From assembly GCA_041660885.1 (NCBI GenBank), contig JBAZVM010000001.1:102698-166697 (forward strand): 64,000 nt of DNA, written 5' to 3'. The notes below the pieces were generated by a model that saw only the letters and a program-made list of their open reading frames with translations, made no database searches and had not been told where the DNA came from. Shown here in pieces: positions 1,651 through 33,891 of the stretch. How positions within the stretch are numbered: position 1 is the first letter of the stretch; each line of letters opens with the position of its first letter. Both the position numbers and the translations under genes were made by a program. The DNA comes from Patescibacteria group bacterium (GTDB lineage Bacteria; Patescibacteriota; Patescibacteriia; UBA9570; JAHJKD01).

Positions 1651-3142
1651 ATTACTGCTAATTTTAATTTTTCTTTTAAGCCTTACTCTTTTTGCTCGGC
1701 TGGAATCGGATTTAACTTTTTCCGATCCCGATTCTTTTTATCACGCGCGCTTTACTAAAATAATAAGCGAGCAAGGAGTAGTTATAAATTTTCCTTGGCA
1801 AACGCAAACGGTATTACAAGATTATTTCACTGACCATCATCTTTTATATCATCTAATATTAGTTCCGTTAGCTAGATATTTCCCCGGGGAAATAGCGGTT
1901 AAAATCGGTTCAATTATTTTCAGCGCTTTTTTTATCGCATTACTTTATTGGTATTTTGCTAAACGGAAAGTTAAGTATGCCTGGGCTTTTATTTTTTTGT
2001 TGCTTACCATCGGACCATTTGTTTTACGGCTTTCTTTGCCCAAGGCCACGCCCTTGGCTTTGATTCTATTATTATTGGGAATATATTATGTTGAAGAAAA
2101 AAAATATTTACTTTTATTTTTAATTTCTTTTTTATACGTTTGGGCGCATGGCGGTTTTTTAATTTTATTTTTGGCGGCTGTAATTTTTTGTACGGCCAAA
2201 TTCGTAGAGACGAAGCATGCTTCTTCCCTACATTCCATCCTAGTTGTATTAGGCGGTTTTTTAGCCGGGCTGGTAATCAACCCCTATTTCCCCAATAATT
2301 TATGGTTCTATTGGCAGCAGGTGGTGCAGATAGGGATTATCAATTATAAAGACCAAATCGATGTTGGCGCGGAATGGTACGCATATTCTTTGCCTGATTT
2401 AATTGGAGCCACGAGCTTAATGTGGATTGTTTCTATTTTAGGTGTATTGATTTTTTGCATATATTTAAAAAAACAAAAAGCATCAAGCATCAGTTGGCTA
2501 ATATTATCCGTCATTTTGTTTGTGGCGACTCTCCGCTCTAGAAGATTTGTGGAATATTTTGTGCCCGCTATGCTTATTTTCAGTTCTTTAACAATATCTT
2601 GGTTTTTAAATTCCATGTATTGGAAAAAGTTTATTAAAGAAGCAAAAGTTTGGTATGAGAGAAAAAAAATATTAAGCATAATTTTGCTTATTTATTTGGC
2701 TTTGGCGATTCCTTTTAGCATGGGCCGCACTTTGTTATCTTTGAAAAAAGAATTAAAAAGCGGTTTTCCCTTTGATACTTTTAAAGGCGCCTCGGAGTAT
2801 CTTCAAAAAAATACGGTGCCAGAAGACATTATTTTCCATGCCCGGTGGGATGATTGGCCGATATTATTTTTTCATAATCAATCCAATTATTATATTGTGG
2901 GTTTAGACGCGACTTTCATGTACAAATATAATAAAGAGCGTTATATTTTATGGGATAAAATCGGTAGCGGCCAAATCAAGGATAATTTGGCGGAAACTAT
3001 AAAAAATAATTTTAACTGCCACTATGTTTTTATCAATAATAAAGAAGAAGATACGCGATTATTTCAAGCTTATTTAGAACGAGATAGCGGCGTTAAAATA
3101 ATTTATGAAGATGACGAGGCTACTGTTTATGAAATTATATAA
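1634..3142 (+). CDS. polytopic GT-C-fold membrane glycosyltransferase-like protein, paralog A (STT3/AglB/PglB-like motifs)
   Basis: 502 aa with more than 10 hydrophobic segments. It has an acidic first-loop motif FSDPDSFYHARF, a mid-protein loop DVGAEWYAY, and a soluble tail starting IIFHARWDDWPILFF...VGLD. Confidence 0.5.
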   Translation: MRLKNRLLLILIFLLSLTLFARLESDLTFSDPDSFYHARFTKIISEQGVVINFPWQTQTVLQDYFTDHHLLYHLILVPLARYFPGEIAVKIGSIIFSAFFIALLYWYFAKRKVKYAWAFIFLLLTIGPFVLRLSLPKATPLALILLLLGIYYVEEKKYLLLFLISFLYVWAHGGFLILFLAAVIFCTAKFVETKHASSLHSILVVLGGFLAGLVINPYFPNNLWFYWQQVVQIGIINYKDQIDVGAEWYAYSLPDLIGATSLMWIVSILGVLIFCIYLKKQKASSISWLILSVILFVATLRSRRFVEYFVPAMLIFSSLTISWFLNSMYWKKFIKEAKVWYERKKILSIILLIYLALAIPFSMGRTLLSLKKELKSGFPFDTFKGASEYLQKNTVPEDIIFHARWDDWPILFFHNQSNYYIVGLDATFMYKYNKERYILWDKIGSGQIKDNLAETIKNNFNCHYVFINNKEEDTRLFQAYLERDSGVKIIYEDDEATVYEII

Positions 3143-4643
3143 ATTAATATTTAATATTTATACCAAATTTTTTTTATTATTTATTTTTTGCGTTTTATTA
3201 TTCACTTATTTTCAATTAAGCGAGAATTTCCCCGATCCTGACGCTTTTTATCATTTAAAAATCGGCCATTTGATTTGGCAGAATGGCGTAGTGGTTGATT
3301 TTCCGTGGGCGCAATATACGGTGCTGAAAGATTATTACATAGATCATCATTTGCTGTATCATTTTGTTCTGTCGCCATTTGTTAATTTGCTACATCCTTT
3401 GGTTGGCGTGAAAGTAGCCACTATACTATTGGCTAGCTCGTTTATTTTTCTTTTTGCTTTGATCGCGCGAGCGTTGAAATTAAAAGCCGGCATTTTATTA
3501 GGTGTTATAATGGCCGTAACCATTCCGCTTACTTTCCGGTTGAATCTGGTTAAGGCCAATTCTTTGTCGTTAATAATATTATTTCTAGGAATTTATTTAG
3601 TAGTCAAGAAAAAATACATTTGGCTTTTTTTATTGTCTTTTTTATATGTCTGGGCGTATGGGGGATTTGCGGTTTTATTATTGGTGGCAATAATTTTTTG
3701 TATGGCCCGTTTTGCAGAGACGAAGCATGCTTCGTCTCTGCTGCCAATCCCCATCGTATTAGGCGGATTCATCGCCGGTATAATCATTAATCCGTATTTT
3801 CCGAAAAATTTATGGTTCTATTGGCAGCAGGTGGTGCAAATCGGTTTGGTGAATTATCAAGATAAAATTGGCGTAGGCGGAGAATGGTATCCCTATGGTT
3901 TTGTGGAATTAATTACCGGATGTTCTTTGCTTACAGTGCTTATGGTGACAGCTCTGCTGATTTTTTTTATTTTTATAAAAAAACAATCAGCTCTTTCGTG
4001 GGCAAGCTTCATTCTTTACGCTTTGGGTTTGTTTTTAGTATTAAAATCCAGGCGCTATATAGAATACTATGTTCCCTTTACCGCCTTTTTTATTGTTAAT
4101 GTTTTTTCTATTTTTAGCGCCAAGCAGATAATAATCTGGCTGATTAAATTTTGGCATTACCATTTTATCAATAAAGTTTTTTGTTTTATTGCCGTAATAT
4201 ATATTTTGCTGGTTGTTCCGGCTATTGCGTATAAAGATTTTAAAATAAATTTGCGCGATTTGCGCGGAGGAATCAGTTATAATAAATTCGCACCGGCCAT
4301 GGAATGGCTGCAAAAAAACGGAGAGAAAAACACCATAGTTTTACATAGCGATTGGGATGAGTTTCCCATGCTTCTTTTTCATAATAGTGATAATTATTAT
4401 ATTGTGGGCTTGGATCCGACTTTTATGTATAAATATGACGAAAAAAAATATTGGCAATGGGTGGATATAACAACCGGAAAACAAAAAGAAAGTTTGCCGA
4501 AAATAATTAAAAACGATTTTCAAGCTAAATACGTATTTTTAGAAAAGGATCATACGGCCATGGATGATAATATGCAAAATTTTTCTCAATTCACTTTGAT
4601 ATACGAAGACGACGAAGCTAAAATATATAAATTAGAAATGTAA
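3105..4643 (+). CDS. polytopic GT-C-fold membrane glycosyltransferase-like protein, paralog B (the start may be the ATG at 3129)
   Basis: 512 aa and collinear with paralog A (FPDPDAFYHLK, ETKHASSL, NPYFPKNLWFYWQQVVQIG, GVGGEWYPY, LHSDWDEFPMLLF...VGLD). Confidence 0.5.
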   Translation: MKMTRLLFMKLYKLIFNIYTKFFLLFIFCVLLFTYFQLSENFPDPDAFYHLKIGHLIWQNGVVVDFPWAQYTVLKDYYIDHHLLYHFVLSPFVNLLHPLVGVKVATILLASSFIFLFALIARALKLKAGILLGVIMAVTIPLTFRLNLVKANSLSLIILFLGIYLVVKKKYIWLFLLSFLYVWAYGGFAVLLLVAIIFCMARFAETKHASSLLPIPIVLGGFIAGIIINPYFPKNLWFYWQQVVQIGLVNYQDKIGVGGEWYPYGFVELITGCSLLTVLMVTALLIFFIFIKKQSALSWASFILYALGLFLVLKSRRYIEYYVPFTAFFIVNVFSIFSAKQIIIWLIKFWHYHFINKVFCFIAVIYILLVVPAIAYKDFKINLRDLRGGISYNKFAPAMEWLQKNGEKNTIVLHSDWDEFPMLLFHNSDNYYIVGLDPTFMYKYDEKKYWQWVDITTGKQKESLPKIIKNDFQAKYVFLEKDHTAMDDNMQNFSQFTLIYEDDEAKIYKLEM

Positions 4644-11003: not shown

Positions 11004-12212
11004 CTAAAGATCATATTCCCGTTTAAGCAAATCTTTAAATTTTTTATCTTTCAAATAAATAAGCAGATCCACATAGCGCTTGGCCGGCCAAAAACGCTCA
11101 TCTCGCGGGACAACCAGATAATTGGAAGGAAGATTAACATCGCACGCAAAGTGTTCCAGCTGGAGCACTTCGCCTTCGGCTATTTTTTTCTCCGCGATTA
11201 TCAAGGGAAGATCTTCTTCATAATCAAGCAAGCTTTTCAAAGTAAACCAAAAATTATTCGTGTTAAAATATTTCAGGGAGGATTGCGCGAAATTTTGCGG
11301 GAACTTCATTTGTTCCACGATTTCTATTTTATTATCAACTAAACATGGCGCGCCGCCCTTGTCTCCTTTGGTTTTTGGCGCTACTTCCACGGTGCGGCCT
11401 TTTCTTTGCTGGATATGATAGCCTAAAATTGTTGGATTAATAGTGGACCCGAAGTTATCAATGTTATTGAAAAACATGTATTTTACGCCCGTAATTCCTT
11501 CTTCATTAAAATAATCGCGAGTTAAATATAGAAAATCGCCATGGCCGGCGGGTGCAAAACTCAAATGACCTTTTTGGTCGATAAAAAGTTCTGTTTCCGA
11601 AAGATTTTTCACCTTTTTAAATCTTGGCACTTTCGGCCTTTGTACAATGAAATGAAAGAGTTCCCTTCTTAACTGAGGATATTTTTTAAATAATTGATCC
11701 AGATGATCCCTGGTTGGCTTATCAGTTAAAAAACTGTTCATGATTAAAACCGGCGGGTGATCTTTTAATTTAAGCTCTGCAGTTATTTTTAATAAGTTAA
11801 TTATTTTAAGTTCAAGATAAGTAATATCATGAATCACCGGAGTAATGCCTTTTGGCAAGCTTCTTGTAAAACTGCTAATAAGGCTTAGCTCTTTCTGAAA
11901 TTTTTTCCTTTCTGCTTTTGTTATTTTACTGTCGTCGAAATATCTGGTGGCCGCTCCGCCGTTAAGCCAGAAAACCAATAGTTCCCCTTTTTTAATGGCT
12001 TCTTCGCCAATATTTTTTAAGCCGGATTCTTTCACGCTATCCAAAAAAGCGAACATGCTGTCGCTGGGCGCTTTCAGTTGTTTGGCCGAATAAATAAAGG
12101 AATCGTAGGTTATTTGGCCCAAAGAGAGCTTTAAGTGAAGCTCGTTGATTTGTTCAGGCTCCACCCCCTGTTTTAAAAGTTGGCTGTTTATTTCTTTTTT
12201 TGTTAGAAGCAT
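11004..12212 (-). CDS. UDPGP-family (eukaryotic-type) UTP--hexose-1-phosphate uridylyltransferase
   Basis: Motifs LVFWLNGGAATRY, APAGHGDFLYL and FFNNIDNFG match the LNGGLGT / PxGHGD / NxDNLG signatures of the UGPase/UAP family. Confidence 0.7.
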   Translation of the reverse strand: MLLTKKEINSQLLKQGVEPEQINELHLKLSLGQITYDSFIYSAKQLKAPSDSMFAFLDSVKESGLKNIGEEAIKKGELLVFWLNGGAATRYFDDSKITKAERKKFQKELSLISSFTRSLPKGITPVIHDITYLELKIINLLKITAELKLKDHPPVLIMNSFLTDKPTRDHLDQLFKKYPQLRRELFHFIVQRPKVPRFKKVKNLSETELFIDQKGHLSFAPAGHGDFLYLTRDYFNEEGITGVKYMFFNNIDNFGSTINPTILGYHIQQRKGRTVEVAPKTKGDKGGAPCLVDNKIEIVEQMKFPQNFAQSSLKYFNTNNFWFTLKSLLDYEEDLPLIIAEKKIAEGEVLQLEHFACDVNLPSNYLVVPRDERFWPAKRYVDLLIYLKDKKFKDLLKREYDL

Positions 12213-13983: not shown

Positions 13984-16093
13984 CCAATTTTGTTAGAAAC
14001 TCTTTTATAATACCTGTTTTATAAACCAGAAAGATTATTCCCGCCGTCAAAACGGCTATAGCTATTAATAAATAATTAATAATATTTTTGTTGTCGGATA
14101 TTTTATTCAGGCTCATATTGCTCCCTGTTTCCTCGGCATAAGCCGCTTTGATAATTCCACCACTTTCTTCGTTTGTGGCGCCTTCTTCGGTTGTGATATC
14201 TTCCGCGCTTCTGATTAATAAGCGGTATTCTTCTTTATATTGGCTGACAATGCCCGTGGCTTTTATCATCTGGCCTTCTTGGTATTTGCTTTTGTCGAAT
14301 TCCACATTGGATTTTATATAGATTATTACGCCGTTGGCCAAGGTGACTCTCGTGGTGGTTAATTCCAGAATTTGACCTTGCGTAGTTATTAATTTGCCTT
14401 CTAAATCTTCATCTAGAGACTCCGCCTCAGTCATATCTAAATCTTGTTCTTGATCAATTATTTCTATATCTTCCGCTAAGCTGATATTTATTCGTTTCTC
14501 GTTATATGCTTCAGATACTTTGCCTTTAACACGAATCAAATCTCCCACTTTCAAATCCGGAAAAAGTTTTTGCGAGGAATATATCTGCATGCCGGAAGAC
14601 GCATCTTGAATATAAAAATATTGGCTGCCTAAAATATTAGGGAGTACCGTAACCACCCCCTCGATACTGACCTTGGCATCTTTTTCCTGTTCGCGCGCTT
14701 CTTGAATACTAAGCAGAGGGTATTCTTCGCTTTCTGTTGTTGCCTCTTCCTCTTCTGTTGTTTGCTCCACTATATCGTTGCTCTCGTTAGGAGTGATTTT
14801 AGAAGACCAAGCCCATTCCGTGCCATCCGCGCTGTAACTGAAGCCGGTTATGGATTTAGGATATGTGACTTGTGAGATGGTTTTATCTTCCGGGTCCGTC
14901 AAAGTTATAGCCTCTCCCAAGTTATTTAAAGAAATTTTCGTTTCCGTTATATAAAATGCTTTATATTCATGCGCTTTTAATTTTATACTTTCTTCGAACG
15001 TGAAAGTGCGGCTTAAATCGGAAATGTTCCAGCCGAATAAATCCATTTCATTATCTTCGCCATTATAAATTTCGATAAATTCATCTTGCGTATCCGACCC
15101 CTCGGGATCAGGGAGTAATTCCGTAATTTTTATTTTATCGGAAAAGAAATATTTTTGCTCGTTTGCCGCATCTTCTATTTTATTATCATTATTTGGTGTG
15201 GGTTGATTTGTCCAATACCATTTTTGATCTTTATAACTATAGCTTTGGCCTTTTTCTCCGCCCGTATATTCTAAAGTTTGAGCTATGGTACCGTCTGGCT
15301 TATATAATTTTATAGTGTCACCATCATTATTAAGGGATATTTTAGTTTCATCTCCGTAAACCGTGTAATATTTTTCTATTTCCGCGCTAATAGTAAATTT
15401 TTTATCGGTGGCATCGCTCAGTTGCCAGCCATTTAAATTTACTTTTTTGTCTCCTTTATTTTTTAGTTCTATAAATTCAATTTCTCCTTCAACAGGATCG
15501 GCGTAAATTTCGTTTATTATAATATCATCGGAAAGTTCATATGTTGAATTATTTTGGTTGCTTTCAGGAAAAACATTCTCCGCGTTTGGCGTTGCCGGAG
15601 TAACCCAACTCCAATTATTATTACTATCACGGCTATAGCTATAGTCTTCTTGCGCGCTATCGGTAAATGATACGGCTTCCAGCTGCGTATTATCTGGTTG
15701 AAGAAGAGAGACAGTTTCACCGGAGTTGTTTAGGGATATGTTAGAGATAGAAGCGTAAATCGTAAAAAATCCGCCGGCTTTTATAGTTGTGTCGCTATAA
15801 TCGTCCGCGCTAATTTTATAGATTTTTTCCGACGCGTCTTTTAATTGCCAATCGGTTAGGCAGACATCGTCGCTTCCTAAATTTTTTAGTTCGATAAATT
15901 CAAACTCGCTATCTGTGCCAGAGGGGTTGGGCATAATTTCGTTGAGAATGATTTGATTTGAATAAGTAATCGGCCCTGTTTCCGGGTCTGTTGGGCATTC
16001 GCACGGGCAGGTGCAGTCTTCGGCAAACAAGATTCCAGGCATTATGGCTACTCCCCATGCTAGCCATAAGGTCATGATAATTTTTTTTGTCAT
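13916..16093 (-). CDS. lamin-tail-domain (LTD) repeat surface protein with an OB-fold-like region and a C-terminal membrane anchor
   Basis: Signal peptide. Three LTD starts (IILNEIMPNPSGTDSEFEFIELKN, IIINEIYADPVEGEIEFIELKN, IKITELLPDPEGSDTQDEFIEIYN) and a C-terminal TM segment NYLLIAIAVLTAGIIFLVY. Confidence 0.7.
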   Translation of the reverse strand: MTKKIIMTLWLAWGVAIMPGILFAEDCTCPCECPTDPETGPITYSNQIILNEIMPNPSGTDSEFEFIELKNLGSDDVCLTDWQLKDASEKIYKISADDYSDTTIKAGGFFTIYASISNISLNNSGETVSLLQPDNTQLEAVSFTDSAQEDYSYSRDSNNNWSWVTPATPNAENVFPESNQNNSTYELSDDIIINEIYADPVEGEIEFIELKNKGDKKVNLNGWQLSDATDKKFTISAEIEKYYTVYGDETKISLNNDGDTIKLYKPDGTIAQTLEYTGGEKGQSYSYKDQKWYWTNQPTPNNDNKIEDAANEQKYFFSDKIKITELLPDPEGSDTQDEFIEIYNGEDNEMDLFGWNISDLSRTFTFEESIKLKAHEYKAFYITETKISLNNLGEAITLTDPEDKTISQVTYPKSITGFSYSADGTEWAWSSKITPNESNDIVEQTTEEEEATTESEEYPLLSIQEAREQEKDAKVSIEGVVTVLPNILGSQYFYIQDASSGMQIYSSQKLFPDLKVGDLIRVKGKVSEAYNEKRINISLAEDIEIIDQEQDLDMTEAESLDEDLEGKLITTQGQILELTTTRVTLANGVIIYIKSNVEFDKSKYQEGQMIKATGIVSQYKEEYRLLIRSAEDITTEEGATNEESGGIIKAAYAEETGSNMSLNKISDNKNIINYLLIAIAVLTAGIIFLVYKTGIIKEFLTKLANRAAGAEKNTKVINGPNQYHG

Positions 16094-16488
16094 AATGGTT
16101 TGTCCTCTCCCCTTGATCCCCTCCCCATGTCTGGGGAGGGGCAGGAGAGTTGTTTGGTTAATTTTATTAAAATTGATAATACTTCAGTTAAATTATATTC
16201 AATCTCATAATTAGAAAAACGAATAAATGTAATGCCGTATTTTTCTAAATATTTTTGTCTGAATTGATCACGCATAATTTGTTTTTTATGCACTTCGCCA
16301 TCTATTTCAATCGCCAGCTTTATTTTAGGGCAATAGAAATCTATTATATATTTATCAACTATATATTGGCGCTTGAATTTCATGTCATAAAATTTACCGG
16401 CTTGAACTTGTTGCCAAAAAATTCTTTCGGCATCTGTTAAATTCTTCCTAAATTTTTTAGCAATATATAAACTTTCTTTATATTTCAT
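16090..16488 (-). CDS. DUF559 / Vsr-like endonuclease-domain protein
   Basis: AERIFWQQV...KFKRQYIVDKYIIDFYCPKIKLAIEIDGEVH is the DUF559 core. I place the start at MKYKESLY (16488). The 3' end reads through a G/C hairpin repeat, and the stop overlaps the LTD gene start (ATGA). Confidence 0.7.
   Translation of the reverse strand: MKYKESLYIAKKFRKNLTDAERIFWQQVQAGKFYDMKFKRQYIVDKYIIDFYCPKIKLAIEIDGEVHKKQIMRDQFRQKYLEKYGITFIRFSNYEIEYNLTEVLSILIKLTKQLSCPSPDMGRGSRGEDKPL
16104..16149. repeat. G/C-rich hairpin repeat, copy L (CCCCTCCCC-ATGTCT-GGGGAGGGG nested in CTCTCC...GGAGAG)
   Basis: Read directly; related copies lie at 16509-16547 and 57545-57618. Confidence 0.75.
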
Positions 16489-16508
16489 AGTGTTGTGCAA
16501 TAATTTTG

Positions 16509-16547
16509 TCCCCCTCTCCGGAAACGGAGAGGGGTAAGGGGAGAGGC
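16509..16547. repeat. G/C-rich hairpin repeat, copy R (CCCCCTCTCC-GGAAAC-GGAGAGGGG...GGGGAGAGG)
   Basis: Read directly; it flanks the other side of the DUF559 gene. Confidence 0.75.
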
Positions 16548-16624
16548 AAACAAAAAAACGGCTCACAAAGAGAGCCGCCTATATTATTTTCTATTATATA
16601 TAAGAAAAAAAACCTGTCAAATAT

Positions 16625-17155
16625 TAAAAAAGAACGGACCCTGGCGTTGGAAGGACAAGCGGAGACGCATGCTTGCTGCTTGTCCTTCCCGTACGCCAGA
16701 GTGAAGCGTTCCTACCCCGAACGCTTCCTAGCCTTGCCTCCCACTGTGGCAAGACTAGCCGTTAGAAACGAGCCTCGGACTTCGTCGGATGGCTCCGGTG
16801 GGGCGAGGAGATCCCCTTTTTACGAAGCCCGAGGCAAAATAGCGGGACTCCGGACGTGCAACAGAATAGTGTGTCCCCCGAGACACTAACTGTTGCACGC
16901 CGGAGCGAAGTGCTCCCTCCGTATGGTACGCGCTTCCTAGCCAAATTGCCCCGCCCGAAGCAAATGGCTAGCCCTGAAAGTTTCCCGGCCCATCAAGCCT
17001 TGGCTACCCCCCTCGCTTCTTCAAAAAAGGGGTGCCTAAGCGAGAGCCGGGAAGATTAACCCCACACCTAAAGCTGCTACTTCTCGTCTCTCCCGGGAGG
17101 GGTGATGGAGAGCGGAGGAATGAGAAGGCAGCTAATTAGGTGAGGGGATTTCGTG
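16625..17155 (-). ncRNA. unassigned large GC-rich structured RNA candidate (strand tentative)
   Basis: About 530 nt, markedly GC-richer than its neighbours, with stop-free junk ORFs in several frames. At least 8 helices are visible by eye (for example 16641-16660/16678-16699, 16703-16727, 16772-16784/16823-16835, 16856-16864/16890-16898, 17060-17085/17122-17147). The minus strand has TTGACT-N14-TGtTAGGTT upstream and a hairpin plus T-run at the 16625 end. Confidence 0.45.
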
Positions 17156-17188
17156 CACAACCTAACAATTATTATTAAAATAGTCAAT

Positions 17189-17227
17189 AAAAAAGTAGAG
17201 ACGCATTGCAATGCGTCTCTACTTTTT
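17189..17227. terminator. bidirectional intrinsic terminator downstream of metK
   Basis: aaaaagtagagacgcattgcaatgcgtctctacttttt. Confidence 0.8.
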
Positions 17228-17242
17228 ATGTGTGATATTAAA

Positions 17243-18461: not shown

Positions 18462-18484
18462 TTTTGTCTTTGGCAAGCCAAACA

Positions 18485-18585
18485 TCTATCCCGATTATCG
18501 GGTAGGAGTTACCACACAGCATTACCTGCGCTGGCGAGCAGTCTACGGGCCTAGTCCCTCGTGCTTCTCTTGATATTGTTAATTG
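18485..18585 (-). promoter_or_regulatory. SAM riboswitch (S-box / SAM-I clan aptamer)
   Basis: Minus strand: AUCAAGAGAAGCACGAGGGACUAGGCCCGUAGACUGCUCGCCAGC...GGUAACUCCUACC...GAUAGAUG. It matches the AGAG..GAGGGAC.GGCCC..GA core and sits upstream of metK. Confidence 0.75.
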
Positions 18586-18692: not shown

Positions 18693-21600
18693 ATGAACAA
18701 AAATAAAAATAAAATAAACAAATTACTCTTTGTAATTGATAAAAATTATTATCATTCTTTCATTATTTTTCTTGCGAGCATTTTTATTGTGTCGTTTTTT
18801 TGTATTTGCGGTTTTTTTCAGCCGGTCTTAGCCGATACTACTTTTACCGTAAATGATCTAGGTGATGCCACGGATGACAACGCTGGCGATGGTGTTTGCC
18901 ATACAGCCGGAGGCGTTTGCACTTTTCGCGCCGCTATCGTTGAAATCAACGCTCTCGCCGGAAACCACACAATAAATTTTAGCGTAGCCGGAACTATCGA
19001 AGTGGCTTCAGTAGTAACATTAAGCCGTGCTAATACTACCATTGATGGCGGAACCAATCACGACGTGGTTATTAATGGCACCGGCACCGCCGGCATCCAT
19101 TGCATCACCATTAATGGCGTGGATAATAATATTATCAATGGGTTGGTAGTTCAGAATTGCCAATATGGATTTAATTTAGCTAACGACTCGGACAACAATA
19201 AAATCCAGAATAATTACATTGGCACCAACGCGGCGGGTACCGCAGCCGTGGCTAATAGCAGGGGAATTAGCGCATCCGCTTCCACTACCGGAAACATCAT
19301 CGGCACGGACGGAGATGGCGTGAACGACGCCAGTGAAAAAAATTTGGTATCCGGCAATGTCGGCGGCATATATATGGCCACTGCGACCAATTGGATTGTT
19401 GCGGGAAATTATATTGGTACGAATTTGGCTGGTACTGCCGCCATTGCTAATACTAATTACGGAATGTATCTTACTACCTCAAGTAATAGCAATACCATAG
19501 GCACGGATGGTGACGGAGTTTCCGATGATCTGGAAAGAAACGTTATTTCCGGTAACTCAGGAGCGACTTATGGAGCTTTATATATAACTGGTTCCAATAA
19601 CAATATCATTGCCGGCAATTATATTGGTACCAATGCTGCTGGCACTGCCGCCATTGCCAATATTTATGGAGTATATATTACTGGCGCCTCGCAATCCAAT
19701 ATAGTCGGCACCAATGGTGACGGCGTCGGAGACGCGGCGGAAAGAAATATTATTTCCGGCCATACTGCTGGTTTTGGCGTTTATATTGTTGGCGCAAACT
19801 CAAATACAAATCGCGTGGCAGGCAATTATATTGGTATTAATGCGGCCGGCACAGCAGCCGTGGCTAATAGCAGCGGTGTTGTTATTTCCACAGCCGCTCA
19901 ATCAAACATTGTGGGCACTAACGGCGATGGCGTGGCAGACGCGGCTGAGCAAAATGTTATTTCAGGTAATACAAATTACGGTGTTTATATCACGAGCGCT
20001 AATTCATACTATAACCGTGTAGCTGGAAATTATATTGGCTTAAACGCGGCTGGAGACACAGCCATACCTAATACTCATGGCGTGTATATTTATAGCTCTG
20101 CTTCATATAATACTGTCGGTACAAACGGCGATGGTGTTTCCGACGATTTGGAAAGAAATATTATCTCGGGCAATACCACAGCAACAGGCTATGGCGTTTA
20201 TATAAACTTATCTTCTAATTCTACCACTGTAGCTGGAAATTATATCGGCTTAAACGCGGCCGGCACAGCGGCTATTGCCAATGACAGCGGCCTTGTTATT
20301 GTCTCGTCCTCTTCAAATACTGTCGGTACAAACGGCGATGGTGTTTCCGACGATCTAGAGAAAAATGTCATATCGGGAAATACCGCCGGTTATGGCATAT
20401 ATATGGTGACATCTTCAAATTCCAATACCGTAGCTGGCAACTACGTTGGCACCAACCCGGCCGGAGACGCGGCCATCCCCAATGCTTATGGCGTTTATAT
20501 GGGCGGAGCTTCGAACTCAAACATTGTCGGCAACAATAGCGATGGCGTATCCGACGATTTGGAAAGAAATATTATTTCGGGTAATAATGGAACTTACGGG
20601 GGCGTTAGCATATCCGGTTCCAGTAGTAATATTGTTGCCGGAAATTATATTGGTACCAACGCGGCCGGCACAGCGGCTATTGCTAATGCTAATGGTGTTT
20701 ACATATTCAGCGCTTCGCAATCGAATATTATCGGCACCAATGGCGATGGGACGGCTGATGCCACTGAGCGTAATGTAATTTCCGGAAATACTAGTTATGG
20801 TGTTTACATATTAAATGCAAATTCAAATTCCAATCGCATAGCGGGCAATTATATTGGTACCAACGCGGCCGGCACAGCAGCCGTGGCTAATGGCCATAGC
20901 GGTGTTGTTATTTCTGCGTCCGCACAATCAAATATTGTAGGCACTAACGGTGATGGCGTGGCAGACGCGGCTGAGCAAAATATTATTTCAGGTAATACTA
21001 ATTACGGCGTTTATATAGTGAATGCTAATACATACTATAACCGTGTAGCCGGAAACTATATCGGCTTAAACGCGGCCGGAGACACAGCTATATCCAATAC
21101 TTATGGCGTGTATATTTATAGCTTTGCTTCATATAATACTGTTGGCACCAACGGCGATGGTGTTTCCGATGATCTAGAAAGAAACATCATATCTGGAAAT
21201 ACCACCGCGACTGCTTATGGTGTTGTAATATCAACTTCCGCCAACTCCAATACCGTAGCTGGCAACTACGTTGGCACCAACCCGGCTGGCAACGCGGCCA
21301 TTGCTAATGATAATGGCGTCTATATTGTTAGTGGTGCGCAATCTAACTTTGTTGGTACTAATGGAGATGAATCTGGCGATGCGGTTGAACGTAATATTAT
21401 ATCCGGTAATACTGGTTATGGCGTGGTGATAAATAGTGTTACCACTATTTCTAACACTGTGGCCGGCAACTACATCGGCTTAAACGCGGCCGGAGACGCA
21501 GCCGTGCCAAACGTTAGCAGAGGAATGATAATTATTGCTGCCATCTCAAATACTATTGGTACAAATAGCGATGGCGCCTCGGATGATTTGGAAAGAAATA

Positions 21601-24600
21601 TTATTTCCGGTAATACCGGTTATGGCATAGAATTAAACACTACAATCACTGGCAGTAATAAGATTTCTGGAAATTATATAGGAACTAATCCGGCCGGAAC
21701 GAGCGCTATTGCCAATAATACTGGCATTGGTTTAACTTATGCGGCTTATCAAATGATCGGTACCGACGGCGACGGCATAAGCGATAGCATAGAAGGTAAT
21801 TTGATTTCGGGGAACACAAATTATCAAATATATACCCATCCTTCTTATAACAATGATTATAATACGATTGCCGGAAACTACATTGGTTTAAACGTAGCCG
21901 GAGACGCGGCTATTGGGGCTGGAAGTTATGGCATAGGCATTAACGGATTATCAAGTGATAATATTATTGGTACGGACGGCGACGGCGTATCCGATGATTT
22001 GGAAAGAAACGTGATCGCGTCTCAAACTAACATGATTTATGTTAATAATGGAGATACTAATACCATAGCCGGCAACTACATCGGTTTAAATGCGGCTGGC
22101 ACTGCTAAAGTAGGTTCTTGTACTCAAGGCATTTGGTTAAATACCGGGGCATCAAATAATTTAATCGGTACGGACGGCGACGGCGTATCCGATGATTTGG
22201 AAAGAAACGTAGTGGCCGGCTGCACTTATAATTATTACATTACTTCTGCCGGAATTAATGACGGCAATACTATCGCGGGCAATTACTCGGGTTTAGACGC
22301 GGATGGCGATACTGGTTTGGGAGGAACAAACGGTATATATTTTTATAATACCGGGACAAACACTAATAATATTATTGGTACTAATGGAGATGGAAATGGT
22401 GATGCCGTGGAAGGTAATGTGGTTTCCGGTAATACCACGGGGATTACGATTTACGGAAGCAACAACACTTTAAATACCGTGGCTGGAAATATTGTGGGTT
22501 TGGATGCTACTGGAAGCGCGGCCATACCCAACACAACCTACGGTATATATATTTATTCCGGAGCCGCTTCCAATACCATTGGCACGGATTCAGATGGCAC
22601 CTCCGATGATTTGGAAAAAAATATAGTTTCAGGCAACACTACCACCGGCATATATTTGTCTGATGCCAGCACTTCCAATAATATGATAAAAGGCAATTAT
22701 ATCGGCGCAGGTTTAGACGGAGTCACGGACTATGGTAATGGTACTCATGGAATCATGATAGACGACACAGCCACTTCCAATACTATAGGAGGCAGCGGTA
22801 CTTACGATGCCAATATAATCGCTTATAACGGAGATGGCGCATCGGAATACGGTATTTCCATAGAAGATGTAAATACTGATCTGCATAAAATATCAAGAAA
22901 TTCTATTCATGACAATCAAAACGAGGGCATTAAATTATCCGGAGGTTCCAATGATGCCATTGCCGTTCCCAGCATCACTGGCTTGGCTGACGGCGGGGCT
23001 TCGGCCACCATTACTCTTTCCGGAACTTGTTTGGTGGACGCCGGAACAGCCACAGTGGAACTTTTTGAATCAGACGGTTCCGGAGAAGGTGAAACATATA
23101 TAACCAGCACCACTTCTACCGATGGCAATTGGAGTACTAATATTACGGGAAGCTATACCACGATAGGCACAAAAATAGTAGCCACGGCTACTAGCTCGAC
23201 AAACAATACTTCCGAATTTTCTTCAGAATACACCATTACAGATTTAGCCGCTCAAGCCAGCACTACTGGTACGGCTGATTCTATAGATGAAGAGCATAAC
23301 GCCAGCTTGGTGGGTACTAGCAGTTACGATCCAAATAGCGGAGATGTTATTACATATCTTTGGGAAAGAACAGCCGGAGAAAATATTGTTATTAATGATG
23401 CCGACCATGCCACGGCTAATTTTGACGCTCCAGACATCACCGGAGCAGATAGTTCCGTAACCGTGAGATTATCTGTAAACGGGGGAGACACTGACTCTAA
23501 AGTAATTAATATAGTAAACACTAATGACGCTCCTATTCTTTCTATAAATATTCCAGACCAAAGTTTAGACGAAGACATATCAGAAAACGCCAAATTCGAT
23601 TTAGATGATTATTTTACGGATGTTATTCCTCCAGGAGATACTTTATCCTATACCGCTATCGATGATTTTAATCCTGCTCTAGGCACTATAGATATTAATG
23701 CCGATGGCACCATAGATTTTAATCTTGCGGCTAACGCCAATGGTTCTGATACCATTCAATTTAGAGCTACGGATGATTTAAGCGCAATAGCCGATTCTAA
23801 CATCATAACAGTTACCGTAGACCCGATTAATGACGCGCCAACATTTTCCGGTCCCATCACCGTAACCGCGTGGGACGAAGATACGGACAAGAATCTCGCT
23901 TTTGACCTTGATGATAATTTTTCAGATATCGATGCCGGAGACTCTTGCACTTATTCCGTTGCTACTGATCCGGCCAACATAAATGCCACCATCGACGCAG
24001 ACAACAAAGTTTCCTTTTCGCCTGACGCCAACTGGAACGGCAACCAGACCGTAAAGTTTATATGCACCGATACAGGTTTAGCCACTGTGGATAGCAATGA
24101 TATTGCTTTAACGGTTAATCCCGTGAACGATACACCAATAGCGAATGCCGGTAGTAACCAAACTGTCACAGAAGATGACGCCGTAGTTTATTTAAACGGA
24201 TCCGGATCAAGCGATATTGATACGGTGGATGTTTTAACTTATCAATGGATGGAAATGTCAGACTCTGCCGATGCCTGTAGTTTATCCGGATCAACCAACG
24301 TAAGCTCGGAGGTGGCTGTTCAAAATAAAAATTCCAATTATTCCTGCTTATATTCTTTAACTGTAAATGATGGAACAATTGATTCTTTAGCAGATGATAT
24401 ATTAATAGAAGTAACCGCAGATAATGACGCGCCAACAATTGTTGGCATATCCGATGTTATAATAGACGAAAATGAACCATTGATATTTTCCGTCGCCGTC
24501 AATGATATTGATTCGTCTGATATAACTTTGCTAGCCTTGGACGAGCATAATGATTTTGCTGCTAAAAGCATTGATGTTAATTCAATATTTACAGATCATG

Positions 24601-25244
24601 GCAATAATACCGGTACTATAAATTGGACGCCAGGCCTAACGCAATCTGGCAATTATCAGCTGACTATTGATGCCGGAGATGAGATTAATCATACGAAAGA
24701 AATCATTAATATTACGGTGAATAATACTTATGATGAAAACACAGAGGAAACGGAGATTGCTTATTTGAGAGGGCGCGATAGAGGAAAGGGCGTAGTGGAT
24801 GCTTATAGTGCGGATGATGAAATTATTTGTTCCATCAACGCGTTCTCGACGGGTGGAGCTATTCCCCGCTTGGTAAAATTAAATGGCGTTTATTATATTT
24901 CCGTAGTTAAATATCGAAGTGGATCTACCATGCATATTTATAATAAAGATTGCGAATTTATGGCCAAGAAAAAACTTTCTCCTAAATTGCATATCAGGCG
25001 CATAGATATTGGTAATTTAAAAAAGAATAATCATGCTCAAGAAATTGTAGTTTCCGCCAGAAGGGACGGCCATGTTTCTATAAAAATATATAGATACGAT
25101 CTTGTTTATAACCGATGGCATCTTTTGAAAAGAACCATGATTAATAATGTACCTCGCGGATATTCTTTAGAAACAGAGGGGAAAGTAGTCCAAATTAGAA
25201 ATAAATATGATAAGTTACTGTATACTTGGAAAGTTAATTTATAG
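18693..25244 (+). CDS. giant (2183 aa) secreted/surface protein: CSLREA-like N-terminal domain, about 30 right-handed parallel beta-helix repeats, cadherin-like/Ig-like modules, and a conserved C-terminal domain
   Basis: N-terminal TM/signal segment, then TFTVNDLGDATDDNAGDGVCHTAGGVCTFRAAIVEINAL. A repeating unit follows: AGNYIGTNAAGTAAIAN..GVYI...SNIVGTNGDGVSDDLERNIISGN. It ends with several ..NDAP(I/T).. modules. Confidence 0.85.
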   Translation: MNKNKNKINKLLFVIDKNYYHSFIIFLASIFIVSFFCICGFFQPVLADTTFTVNDLGDATDDNAGDGVCHTAGGVCTFRAAIVEINALAGNHTINFSVAGTIEVASVVTLSRANTTIDGGTNHDVVINGTGTAGIHCITINGVDNNIINGLVVQNCQYGFNLANDSDNNKIQNNYIGTNAAGTAAVANSRGISASASTTGNIIGTDGDGVNDASEKNLVSGNVGGIYMATATNWIVAGNYIGTNLAGTAAIANTNYGMYLTTSSNSNTIGTDGDGVSDDLERNVISGNSGATYGALYITGSNNNIIAGNYIGTNAAGTAAIANIYGVYITGASQSNIVGTNGDGVGDAAERNIISGHTAGFGVYIVGANSNTNRVAGNYIGINAAGTAAVANSSGVVISTAAQSNIVGTNGDGVADAAEQNVISGNTNYGVYITSANSYYNRVAGNYIGLNAAGDTAIPNTHGVYIYSSASYNTVGTNGDGVSDDLERNIISGNTTATGYGVYINLSSNSTTVAGNYIGLNAAGTAAIANDSGLVIVSSSSNTVGTNGDGVSDDLEKNVISGNTAGYGIYMVTSSNSNTVAGNYVGTNPAGDAAIPNAYGVYMGGASNSNIVGNNSDGVSDDLERNIISGNNGTYGGVSISGSSSNIVAGNYIGTNAAGTAAIANANGVYIFSASQSNIIGTNGDGTADATERNVISGNTSYGVYILNANSNSNRIAGNYIGTNAAGTAAVANGHSGVVISASAQSNIVGTNGDGVADAAEQNIISGNTNYGVYIVNANTYYNRVAGNYIGLNAAGDTAISNTYGVYIYSFASYNTVGTNGDGVSDDLERNIISGNTTATAYGVVISTSANSNTVAGNYVGTNPAGNAAIANDNGVYIVSGAQSNFVGTNGDESGDAVERNIISGNTGYGVVINSVTTISNTVAGNYIGLNAAGDAAVPNVSRGMIIIAAISNTIGTNSDGASDDLERNIISGNTGYGIELNTTITGSNKISGNYIGTNPAGTSAIANNTGIGLTYAAYQMIGTDGDGISDSIEGNLISGNTNYQIYTHPSYNNDYNTIAGNYIGLNVAGDAAIGAGSYGIGINGLSSDNIIGTDGDGVSDDLERNVIASQTNMIYVNNGDTNTIAGNYIGLNAAGTAKVGSCTQGIWLNTGASNNLIGTDGDGVSDDLERNVVAGCTYNYYITSAGINDGNTIAGNYSGLDADGDTGLGGTNGIYFYNTGTNTNNIIGTNGDGNGDAVEGNVVSGNTTGITIYGSNNTLNTVAGNIVGLDATGSAAIPNTTYGIYIYSGAASNTIGTDSDGTSDDLEKNIVSGNTTTGIYLSDASTSNNMIKGNYIGAGLDGVTDYGNGTHGIMIDDTATSNTIGGSGTYDANIIAYNGDGASEYGISIEDVNTDLHKISRNSIHDNQNEGIKLSGGSNDAIAVPSITGLADGGASATITLSGTCLVDAGTATVELFESDGSGEGETYITSTTSTDGNWSTNITGSYTTIGTKIVATATSSTNNTSEFSSEYTITDLAAQASTTGTADSIDEEHNASLVGTSSYDPNSGDVITYLWERTAGENIVINDADHATANFDAPDITGADSSVTVRLSVNGGDTDSKVINIVNTNDAPILSINIPDQSLDEDISENAKFDLDDYFTDVIPPGDTLSYTAIDDFNPALGTIDINADGTIDFNLAANANGSDTIQFRATDDLSAIADSNIITVTVDPINDAPTFSGPITVTAWDEDTDKNLAFDLDDNFSDIDAGDSCTYSVATDPANINATIDADNKVSFSPDANWNGNQTVKFICTDTGLATVDSNDIALTVNPVNDTPIANAGSNQTVTEDDAVVYLNGSGSSDIDTVDVLTYQWMEMSDSADACSLSGSTNVSSEVAVQNKNSNYSCLYSLTVNDGTIDSLADDILIEVTADNDAPTIVGISDVIIDENEPLIFSVAVNDIDSSDITLLALDEHNDFAAKSIDVNSIFTDHGNNTGTINWTPGLTQSGNYQLTIDAGDEINHTKEIINITVNNTYDENTEETEIAYLRGRDRGKGVVDAYSADDEIICSINAFSTGGAIPRLVKLNGVYYISVVKYRSGSTMHIYNKDCEFMAKKKLSPKLHIRRIDIGNLKKNNHAQEIVVSARRDGHVSIKIYRYDLVYNRWHLLKRTMINNVPRGYSLETEGKVVQIRNKYDKLLYTWKVNL

Positions 25245-25317: not shown

Positions 25318-25397
25318 GCCGCGGTGGCGGAATTGGTATACGCGCATGGCTTAGGACCATGTGGGAAACCTTGAGAGTTCGAGTCTCTCCCGCGGCA
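25318..25397 (+). tRNA. tRNA-Leu (anticodon TAG), class II long variable arm, no encoded CCA
   Basis: Hand-folded cloverleaf. Acceptor GCCGCGG/CCGCGGC, anticodon stem CATGG/CCATG with loop CTTAGGA, T-arm GAGAG-TTCGAGT-CTCTC. Confidence 0.85.
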
Positions 25398-25725
25398 CAT
25401 TACTCAAATTTATGCCAGAACGATCAAGCCCAGCTCCAAAGAGAATATATCCTGAAATGAGCGCTAAAGCCATTGAGTTTTTTATTTCTGGTCCACGCCA
25501 AAAAAAATAAAATAAAAGAAAAATATCGAAGAATGAAAGAAGCCGTGGGCGAAACTGTAACTGATGAGCAAGTGGAGGAATATTATCAAAATTTATTGCA
25601 CCAAATAGAAGAATTAAAAAAGAAAGAAAATGCAGAATTAGATGAAGAACCGATAACAGATGAAGTTCTGAGAGAAAAATAAAAATGTGCTATAATAGTA
25701 TTATAAAAATAAAATTATCAATATT

Positions 25726-30366: not shown

Positions 30367-30395
30367 TTGACAGCTTTCCCGACTTTGCCTATAAT
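30367..30395 (+). promoter_or_regulatory. perfect-consensus sigma70 promoter TTGACA-17-TATAAT
   Basis: ttgaca gctttcccgactttgcc tataat, read directly; about 280 nt upstream of the 23S 5' stem. Confidence 0.65.
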
Positions 30396-30548: not shown

Positions 30549-30674
30549 GTCCTTAGCTATAGATATGTGCACAACCTGTAGATATGTGTAGCTAAAACGA
30601 GAACTTTGACAATTGAATACTAGTATAGTGATTTAATCAAAAGTGTTTTGAATTTTTTAACCGACAATATGTCG

Positions 30675-33597
<2,923 letters not shown>

Positions 33598-33781: not shown

Positions 33782-33891
33782 TTCTGGTGCTTCAAGCGAA
33801 GGGGTCACACCTGTTCCCATTCCGAACACAGTCGTTAAGCCCTTCAGCGCCGATGATACTACTTCGTGGAAAAGTAGGTCAGCGCCAGAAC
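33782..33891 (+). rRNA. rrf: 5S ribosomal RNA
   Basis: TCTGGTGCTTCAAGCGAAGGGGTCACACCTGTTCCCATTCCGAACACAGTCGTTAAGCCCTTCAGCGCCGATGATACT...GCGCCAGAAC. Confidence 0.9.

Follow-up and report, generated by a model that had tools for sequence, protein, structure and literature searches.

What is the GC-rich block that lies directly behind metK in the genome of a member of the Patescibacteria: a gene for a structured RNA, a known RNA in divergent form, or inserted DNA whose hairpins serve nothing? The block was found in a 64-kb stretch of contig JBAZVM010000001.1, hereafter the window, and a first reading of the bare sequence, the original prediction, described it as an unassigned structured RNA with an internally duplicated module, which may be either a very divergent housekeeping RNA or a new large ornate RNA class. 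Here, we report that a strongly folded, noncoding, GC-rich block of ~525 nt after metK is real, and that the duplicated module belongs to two paralogous four-way junctions in the modelled fold. The reading that we favour, for which the chances seem evenly balanced, is a strain-specific and dispensable accessory noncoding RNA (ncRNA) gene of ~525 nt on the minus strand, which would have grown by duplication of a junction module in a hypervariable hotspot of small RNAs and insertions.

The block and its predicted junction domains

The GC content is 0.53-0.59 over positions ~16600-17100 of the window, against ~0.28-0.42 in the flanks and a window average of 0.39, and the interval 16626-17152 is the longest GC island of the window, rRNA excepted. 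Folding of 16625-17155 gave -268.5 kcal/mol for the minus strand and -245.7 kcal/mol for the plus strand (z -10.5 and -10.1, respectively, relative to dinucleotide shuffles), and not a single shuffle matched the folding energy of either strand. The five open frames across the block contain no Pfam family, and the longest stop-free translation matched no protein at E<=0.001 among 1.84 billion representatives, which were read without a word index. A further search with the concatenated six-frame peptides, aimed at spurious open reading frame (ORF) calls over homologous RNAs, returned no match at E<=10 among 5.8 billion proteins. These null searches support the view that the open frames yield junk translations, and together with the GC profile and the fold z of about -10 they bear out the initial description of a structured, noncoding block that is GC-rich relative to its surroundings.

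All helices that had been listed by eye were found again at their coordinates in the predicted fold (Table 1), which adds a 28-bp hairpin at 16982-17053 to that list. One of them had been called a perfect 13-bp pairing. The helix itself stands, whereas the word perfect does not hold on the plus strand, where one A.C mismatch leaves it 93% complementary; the 16772-16835 stem is fully paired on the minus strand only, via a G.U wobble.

On the minus strand, the predicted RNA comprises five units in series, and each folds alone with z between -3.9 and -8.6. Two long hairpins, H1 and H2, are followed by a four-way junction (domain A), a small unit P and a second four-way junction (domain B), with the loops of H1 being C/U-rich (AUUCCUCCG, AUCACCCCUCCCG). 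In the predicted folds, domains A and B have the same length of 131 nt and the same junction topology with zero linker nucleotides; domain A has three hairpins of 35, 30 and 60 nt on a closing stem of 3 bp, and domain B has three of 31, 25 and 65 nt on a closing stem of 5 bp. The 12-mer CGCTTCCTAGCC, present at 16722 and 16931, had been the starting point for the idea of a duplicated module. Its copies (16722-16733 in domain B, 16931-16942 in domain A) form the junction core, in which the 3' strand of hairpin 1 (GGCUAG) adjoins the 5' strand of hairpin 2 (GAAGCG), and the core common to both junctions reads G/CUAG ... CUAG/GAAG ... CUUC/.

The relationship between the two domains was analysed with a covariance model built on domain B alone, which was searched in 337 kb and then, with filters off, in the block only. 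This model matches domain A over model positions 1-131 with 19.4 bits (E 0.27 in the 337 kb, E 5.7e-4 in the block-only search), making domain A the best non-self match on the RNA strand in the 337 kb, where only an antisense reading of the long hairpin of domain B itself scored higher. When 27 confidently aligned pairs were compared with the structure as a guide, 20 proved identical, 4 had changed on one side in a wobble-compatible manner, 2 had changed in a compensatory manner (hairpin 3, C-G to U-A; hairpin 2, U-A to C-G) and 1 was broken. In the apical part of hairpin 3, the two domains are unrelated. The recovery by the covariance model and the pair-by-pair comparison thus indicate that the duplication is real and that pairing was kept through some divergence. 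The internally duplicated module is thereby borne out, with the result, new in this analysis, that the repeated 12-mer is, on the modelled structures, the core of two paralogous 131-nt four-way junctions.

Two other ideas on the architecture were rejected. The first was kissing of the C-rich H1 loops with G-rich loops of the junction domains, given that loop-loop complementarity is not above that of shuffled loops (P 0.76), so that pseudoknots and kissing contacts have no signal. The second was an origin of the block as a mosaic of local hairpins, such as the hairpin 5' of DUF559 or half of the metK terminator, for which the alignments were not above shuffles (p 0.07-0.84).

Strand, promoter and ends of the candidate RNA

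Four observations favour the minus strand. Its fold is better by 16-23 kcal/mol than the same or the best plus-strand fold; in 4/4 one-sided changes between domains A and B, the minus strand retains a G.U pair where the plus strand would have A.C; the analogous block of the relative L085 exhibits a clear asymmetry, with z -7.8 on the metK-sense strand vs. -4.1 on the antisense strand; and a promoter and a U-tract frame the block in this orientation. The putative promoter P1 falls below threshold in a consensus promoter scan and was recognised by reading the sequence directly. Its architecture, TTGACY and TANNTT around a 17-nt spacer that ends in TGN, is also present at the matching place in L085 and L088, both relatives of the source organism. 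The block is probably transcribed from this extended -10 promoter of its own, just after the metK terminator, and the RNA is predicted to start near 17152. At the other end, the U6 tract lies one nucleotide (C) past the closing stem of domain B; it was not flagged by a simple terminator scan because the preceding structure is branched. From this framing we infer a transcript from ~17152 to ~16627. The orientation, the promoter after the metK terminator and the T-run at ~16626-16631 that had been proposed at the outset are thus supported at the level of sequence. The metK terminator also marks a point where assemblies of other samples break, as contigs L081 and L082 end inside 17190-17227.

Perfect, linker-free four-way junctions and long, nearly perfect stems may equally be a property of DNA. 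On this alternative, the block would be a DNA-level structured element whose single-stranded hairpins and Holliday-like junctions serve an integrated plasmid- or phage-like element as a signal for replication, recombination or integration, and its location in an insertion hotspot would fit. However, no integrase, Rep or transposase gene lies within ~10 kb, phage and plasmid collections gave no match with blastn in distant mode, and three pattern scans of viral collections hit coding DNA or unrelated hairpins at no more than chance. The strand-specific, wobble-only changes and the promoter/U-tract framing fit an RNA better, and we see only a slim chance for the DNA-level element.

The position directly 3' of metK raises the alternative of a cis-acting appendage, namely a 3' extension that protects read-through metK mRNA in the manner of repetitive extragenic palindromic (REP) sequences and bacterial interspersed mosaic elements (BIME), or an insulator against the strong downstream promoter. 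We consider this highly improbable, since a very strong terminator (19-bp perfect stem and T-run) separates metK from the block and the block has a promoter-like site of its own, even though other hairpin blocks occupy the same place in sister lineages. As GC-rich, palindromic and strain-variable DNA just after a gene, the block does resemble REP/BIME clusters and miniature inverted-repeat transposable elements. In contrast to these elements, it is single copy in the 64-kb window and the fetched loci (blastn, nhmmer and the covariance model), has neither terminal inverted repeats nor a target duplication, and its hairpins belong to no repeat family.

Table 1. Positions of the block, its predicted parts and the surrounding elements (window coordinates unless a relative is named)
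Feature	Position	Strand	Description
metK terminator	17190-17227		perfect 19+19 nt palindrome, 100% complementary, T-runs on both sides; upstream boundary of the RNA unit
Putative promoter P1	17159-17187	-	TTGACT 17187-17182, 17-nt spacer ending TGT (extended -10), TAGGTT 17164-17159
Unit H1	17060-17147	-	88-nt irregular hairpin, 23 bp; alone -40.4 kcal/mol, z -5.6
Unit H2	16982-17053	-	72-nt hairpin, 28 bp including several G.U; alone z -3.9
Domain A	16844-16974	-	131-nt perfect four-way junction; alone -70 kcal/mol, z -7.1
Unit P	16772-16835	-	64 nt; 14-bp stem closes two mini-hairpins; alone z -5.8
Domain B	16633-16763	-	131-nt perfect four-way junction, paralogous to A; alone z -8.6
U6 tract	16626-16631	-	putative 3' end of the RNA
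Helix	16638-16660 / 16678-16702		22 bp, predicted fold
Hairpin	16703-16727		9 bp, predicted fold
Hairpin	16728-16758		11 bp, predicted fold
Helix	16772-16785 / 16822-16835		14 bp, predicted fold
Helix and inner stem	16855-16864 / 16890-16899		predicted fold
Helix	16937-16971		predicted fold
Helix	17060-17085 / 17122-17147		23 bp, predicted fold
Downstream boundary unit, outside the RNA	16556-16620	-	perfect TTGACAG-N15-TATAAT, ~12 nt, short GC hairpin, T-run
Downstream unit in relatives	L085 ~11497-11565; L088 ~3285-3350; L091 ~11164-11245; L087 ~3393-3460; L093 ~3655-3715		
metK-to-LTD spacer	window 16090-17242; L085 11159-11999; L087 3360-3821; L088 2559-3380; L089 1927-2491; L134 1203-2047		

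Comparison with known RNA families

Rfam 15 at gathering scores gave no match over the block, and at E<=10 with permissive filters, using inputs of 851 nt and 541 nt, it returned only terminator-like and microRNA-precursor noise of the kind that generic long hairpins produce. The cmscan comparison that had been proposed thus assigns the block to none of RNase P, tmRNA, signal recognition particle (SRP) RNA, 6S RNA, OLE, ROOL, GOLLD or raiA at E<=10. HEARO gave no match at the gathering score or at E<=10, and the RNase P models RF00010 and RF00011 gave none at the gathering score in the window or at E<=10 in the 851-nt and 541-nt inputs; the permissive runs listed other large models down to ~9-12 bits, so that the RNase P negative holds above ~10 bits. 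ARAGORN finds no tmRNA in the window, and neither the tmRNA models of Rfam nor those for SRP RNA and 6S RNA match at E<=10. No group I or group II intron match was found with Rfam, whose group I model is known to be insensitive; unlike an intron, the block is flanked by a terminator and a promoter rather than being located within a gene.

A divergent RNase P RNA deserves a closer look. RNase P RNA fell below the Rfam thresholds in 10/35 circular genomes of the Candidate Phyla Radiation (CPR; Lui et al., PMC8172020), and therefore the defining features of RNase P were tested directly. With up to 3 mismatches allowed, the block contains neither of the conserved regions CR-I (GAGGAAAGUCCGGGC) and CR-V (ACAGAAnnCGGCUUA), which elsewhere in the window occur at chance frequency. 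The sole resemblance to CR-I is a gapped match of 7+5 nt at 16772-16786, and this CR-I-like string, CGAAGUCCGAGGC in unit P, has its partner strand 38 nt upstream, within a local hairpin of 14 bp rather than a long-range P4. The ACAGAA of J2/4 is replaced by UAUUUU, and the 5' and 3' ends of the block do not pair with each other in the predicted fold, which thus shows no closure of the RNase P P1 type. A circularly permuted RNase P, with a CR-V-like strand before the CR-I-like one, was considered and rejected as well, as the J2/4 and J3/4 signatures and the long-range helices are missing. The resemblance to RNase P is therefore a short, gapped coincidence in one motif.

It follows that a very divergent housekeeping RNA, be it RNase P (possibly in rearranged order), tmRNA, SRP RNA or 6S RNA, is scarcely credible as an identity for the block. 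In its favour, the minus strand does contain CGAAGUCCGAGGCUC, which is CR-I-like, and GUGCAACAG, sub-threshold RNase P RNAs are frequent in CPR genomes as just described, and rnpB, ssrA and ffs were not found in the 64-kb window with Rfam at gathering scores. However, the covariance models are silent at E<=10 even with the laxest filters, the signatures named above are absent, and eight relatives have no homologue within ~10 kb on either side of metK. The misfit to the RNase P, tmRNA and SRP architectures that the original prediction had already noticed is thus confirmed by covariance models, ARAGORN and the CR-I/CR-V tests, whereas its suggestion of a very divergent housekeeping RNA is not sustained. 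In size range, GC-rich structure and occurrence in a CPR genome, the block remains similar to RNase P RNA, including the divergent CPR forms (PMC8172020), and it shares a CR-I-like string (GAAGUCCG.GGCUC) and a P4-like complementary partner (GGGCUUC). It differs in that its "P4" is a local hairpin with the wrong strand order, the J3/4 and J2/4 adenosines and the S-domain signatures are missing, a covariance-model signal is lacking, and the sequence is not conserved at the fetched loci of the relatives.

Closer in kind are the ncRNA candidates from GC-rich intergenic regions (GC-IGR; PMC11109978). They are GC-rich noncoding islands between genes of AT-rich genomes, with their own promoter, a U-tract, a strong predicted structure and a rapid turnover between relatives, all of which applies to the block. 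For an orphan small RNA (sRNA), the block is unusually long at ~525 nt and carries two duplicated 131-nt junctions, and, unlike the GC-IGR motifs, it has no homologue, so a covariation-supported motif is not possible for it.

A functional analogy can be drawn to decoys of the CsrB/RsmZ type, which like the block are stand-alone chains of hairpins with a motif repeated in the same structural position. These decoys have many GGA loop motifs, whereas the block has two 12-nt core repeats, and it has no sequence or model similarity to them. The large classes OLE, ROOL, GOLLD, raiA and HEARO are comparable as multi-domain, noncoding RNAs of several hundred nucleotides whose functions are unknown or recently glimpsed. 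What defines them is covariation across hundreds to thousands of homologues, together with junction nucleotides that are conserved and with pseudoknots or kissing loops. In contrast, the block is a single clonal sequence with no model match and with loop complementarity at chance.

The metK-LTD spacer in relatives and its meaning

The locus was compared in eight relatives with 83-90% identical MetK, for which ~10 kb were fetched on each side of metK; the source is a metagenome-assembled genome, and its MetK (MFA6027418.1) is closest to Peregrinibacteria-like bins. No homologue of the block was found in these fetched loci with blastn, nhmmer or the domain model. Five of them (L087, L089, L091, L093, L094) have only ~150-230 nt between metK and the next gene, which leaves no space for such an RNA, and the other three (L085, L088, L134) have GC-rich inserts that are unrelated to the block and to each other. 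The insert of L085 (z -7.8) and two blocks in L088 (z -6.6 and -8.4) are hyper-structured on the sense strand. The ~60% GC insert of L134 (~1590-2030) exhibits a weaker fold with the antisense strand being better (z -5.95 vs. -4.67), and, judged by eye, a short GC-rich ORF preceded by AAGGAG as a ribosome-binding site may lie near 1680-1840. In the same relative, a hairpin like the metK terminator (GGGACG...CGTCCC) stands at 1222-1245 and again ~330 nt downstream at 1553-1578.

Around these variable contents, what the loci share is only a frame, made up of a P1-type promoter, short leaders and promoter/hairpin units. The downstream promoter/hairpin unit follows metK in 8/8 relatives with a -35 of TTGACA(G), and with a -10 of TATAAT in 7/8; its promoter is nearly invariant, and its hairpin differs in sequence per lineage and always pairs. 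Within the 64 kb, a perfect TTGACAG-N15-TATAAT recurs just once, as the promoter of the 23S rRNA at 30367. The unit could encode a tiny RNA, act as an attenuator of the LTD gene, or be a metK terminator overlapped by the next promoter. L093 (~3510-3650) and L088 (~3010-3130) have in common a short sRNA-like unit, 82% identical over 45 nt, in which TTGACA and TAAGGT, with a spacer between them that ends in TGN, precede two hairpins (GGUGC...GCACC, then CCCAG...CUGGG) and a T-run, the L088 version being longer with extra hairpins.

Small genes of nuclease-fold or intervening-sequence (IVS) type also occupy the spacer, namely DUF559 in the window and L089, PDDEXK_3 in L087, where the gene is flanked by TAGAATCGCGAA inverted repeats, and 23S_rRNA_IVP in L085. 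A GC-rich hairpin, CCCCUCUCCG-UUUC-CGGAGAGGGG, precedes DUF559 in the window (16504-16555, minus strand) and in L089 (~1985-2035) with 84% identity over 51 nt, and it looks like part of a DUF559 cassette; at 16090-16093, the stop of DUF559 and the start of the LTD gene overlap. The metK-LTD spacer is thus an insertion hotspot which, depending on the lineage, holds nothing, unrelated GC-rich structured blocks, or small nuclease/IVS-type genes.

A SAM-I riboswitch (RF00162) lies upstream of metK at 18479-18579 on the minus strand, with 50.3 bits against a gathering score of 44.4, and another is found upstream of metK in L085, L087, L088, L089 and L091. The whole-window Rfam pass at the gathering threshold missed it, showing that the filters for large inputs can lose genuine RNAs.

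This variability also suits a different explanation, in which the block is functionless or selfish inserted DNA, i.e., a foreign GC-rich piece or the remnant of a decayed mobile cassette, whose hairpins are a property of the DNA and whose transcription is incidental. In its favour, the GC-rich inserts that L085, L088 and L134 have at the same spot differ and are unrelated to one another, nuclease/IVS-type genes occur there too, the block is missing from the relatives examined and has no homologue in the searched collections, and its helices are long and nearly perfect with no tertiary-contact signal. However, the block is single copy in the 64 kb and the fetched loci and lacks terminal inverted repeats, no protein remnant was detected, and the promoter architecture typical of the locus and a correctly oriented U-tract are in place. 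In addition, the duplicated junctions kept their pairing by wobble and compensatory changes on one strand, and a streamlined genome of ~1 Mb seldom retains 0.5 kb of junk for long. We therefore rate inserted DNA as possible but unlikely, although it is the main rival of the RNA gene.

Further members were sought beyond these loci. The only other copies of the block belong to the same clone (L081-L084, 0 mismatches over 2.7-9.3 kb, from three other samples), and because all four samples carry one identical clone, they offer no variation for covariation at the strain level. Samples with this clone include SRR18595301, ERZ27249449 and JGI 3300014208. The metagenome and genome collections were probed by exact patterns only, a method of limited sensitivity; the metagenome pattern GCTTCCTAGCC-N183-213-GCTTCCTAGCC returned 38 loci, all of which are unrelated CRISPR or tandem-repeat arrays. 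One unrelated contig, L128, carries a CRISPR-like array at 313-2147 whose repeat ends in ...AAATCGGCTTCCTAGCC, which explains the recurrence of the 11-mer anchor. Synteny via metK in species-representative genomes was abandoned, MetK being too conserved and the matches scattered across phyla, and P0001, the top-scoring MetK match, was rejected as a relative, being an unrelated organism with a duplicated MetK. The absence of homologues is accordingly strong at the syntenic loci of close relatives and weaker globally.

The suggestion of a new large ornate RNA class finds no second member in the collections searched and no loop contacts above chance. Conservation among related genomes, by which the original prediction would have judged such a class, is lacking as far as tested, and one clonal sequence does not suffice to claim a new RNA class. 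We give a small chance to a weaker form of the idea, in which the block is the first-seen member of a modular four-way-junction RNA type, or the site is a dedicated "RNA cassette" locus (in the window, L085 and L088) where conserved promoters and terminators would express fast-diversifying, hyper-structured, GC-rich RNAs. The turnover of such cassettes might come from conflict-driven selection, e.g., for decoys against phage or host factors, rather than from neutral drift.

Against the RNA gene that we favour, several points have to be counted. No homologue and hence no phylogenetic covariation is at hand, and the sole comparative signal comes from two internal paralogues, a signal that is also expected for a while after a neutral duplication. 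The strand asymmetry inside the block is modest, with 11 vs. 9 G.U pairs; the -10 hexamer of P1 matches the consensus at only 3/6 positions; and both promoter and terminator are recognised at the level of consensus. Long, nearly perfect helices dominate, few junction nucleotides look conserved and loop contacts are at chance. Such an architecture is less typical of RNAs with catalytic or ligand-binding function than of inserted DNA or hairpin-rich spacers. Finally, the role that we suggest for the two junctions below is speculative.

The accessory ncRNA gene would, on balance, work as follows. Directly after the strong metK terminator, the extended -10 promoter would drive an RNA from ~17152 to ~16627, which would fold into five autonomous units, two long hairpins, a four-way junction, the 64-nt unit and a second junction, and would end at the U6 tract past the last closing stem. 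On this reading, the block grew by tandem duplication of the 131-nt junction module. Its insertion site would be the interval between the metK stop codon and the conserved promoter/hairpin unit, the content of which varies among lineages. As the site is empty or differently filled in related lineages, the block appears dispensable and evolutionarily young, and not a housekeeping gene. The two junctions with the same core could form two equivalent platforms for one binding partner, with the RNA acting as a scaffold or a decoy.

Elsewhere in the window, an ORF of 2183 aa that is rich in internal repeats ("GNYIGTNAAGTAAIAN ... GTNGDGVSDDLERNIISGN") occupies 18693-25244 on the plus strand and is probably a giant surface protein; contig L081 matches itself there at 72-79% over 700-780 nt in shifted registers. 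A tRNA-Leu gene follows at 25318-25398. Genes for 23S rRNA (30673-33597) and 5S rRNA (33783-33890) lie on the plus strand, and the 30 kb upstream of them contain no 16S rRNA, an arrangement consistent with the unlinked rRNA genes of many CPR genomes (PMC8172020).

CPR bacteria, the Patescibacteria, have tiny genomes whose ncRNA content is almost unexplored, and a hyper-structured RNA of 0.5 kb in ~1 Mb would be notable there. For annotators of CPR genomes, the practical outcome is mostly negative, as the block is not the missing or divergent RNase P RNA, tmRNA or SRP RNA that they often seek. As an RNA, it would be a clean natural example of enlargement by duplication of a perfect 131-nt four-way junction, and the metK-LTD site could be a hotspot in which to follow the birth and turnover of RNA genes.

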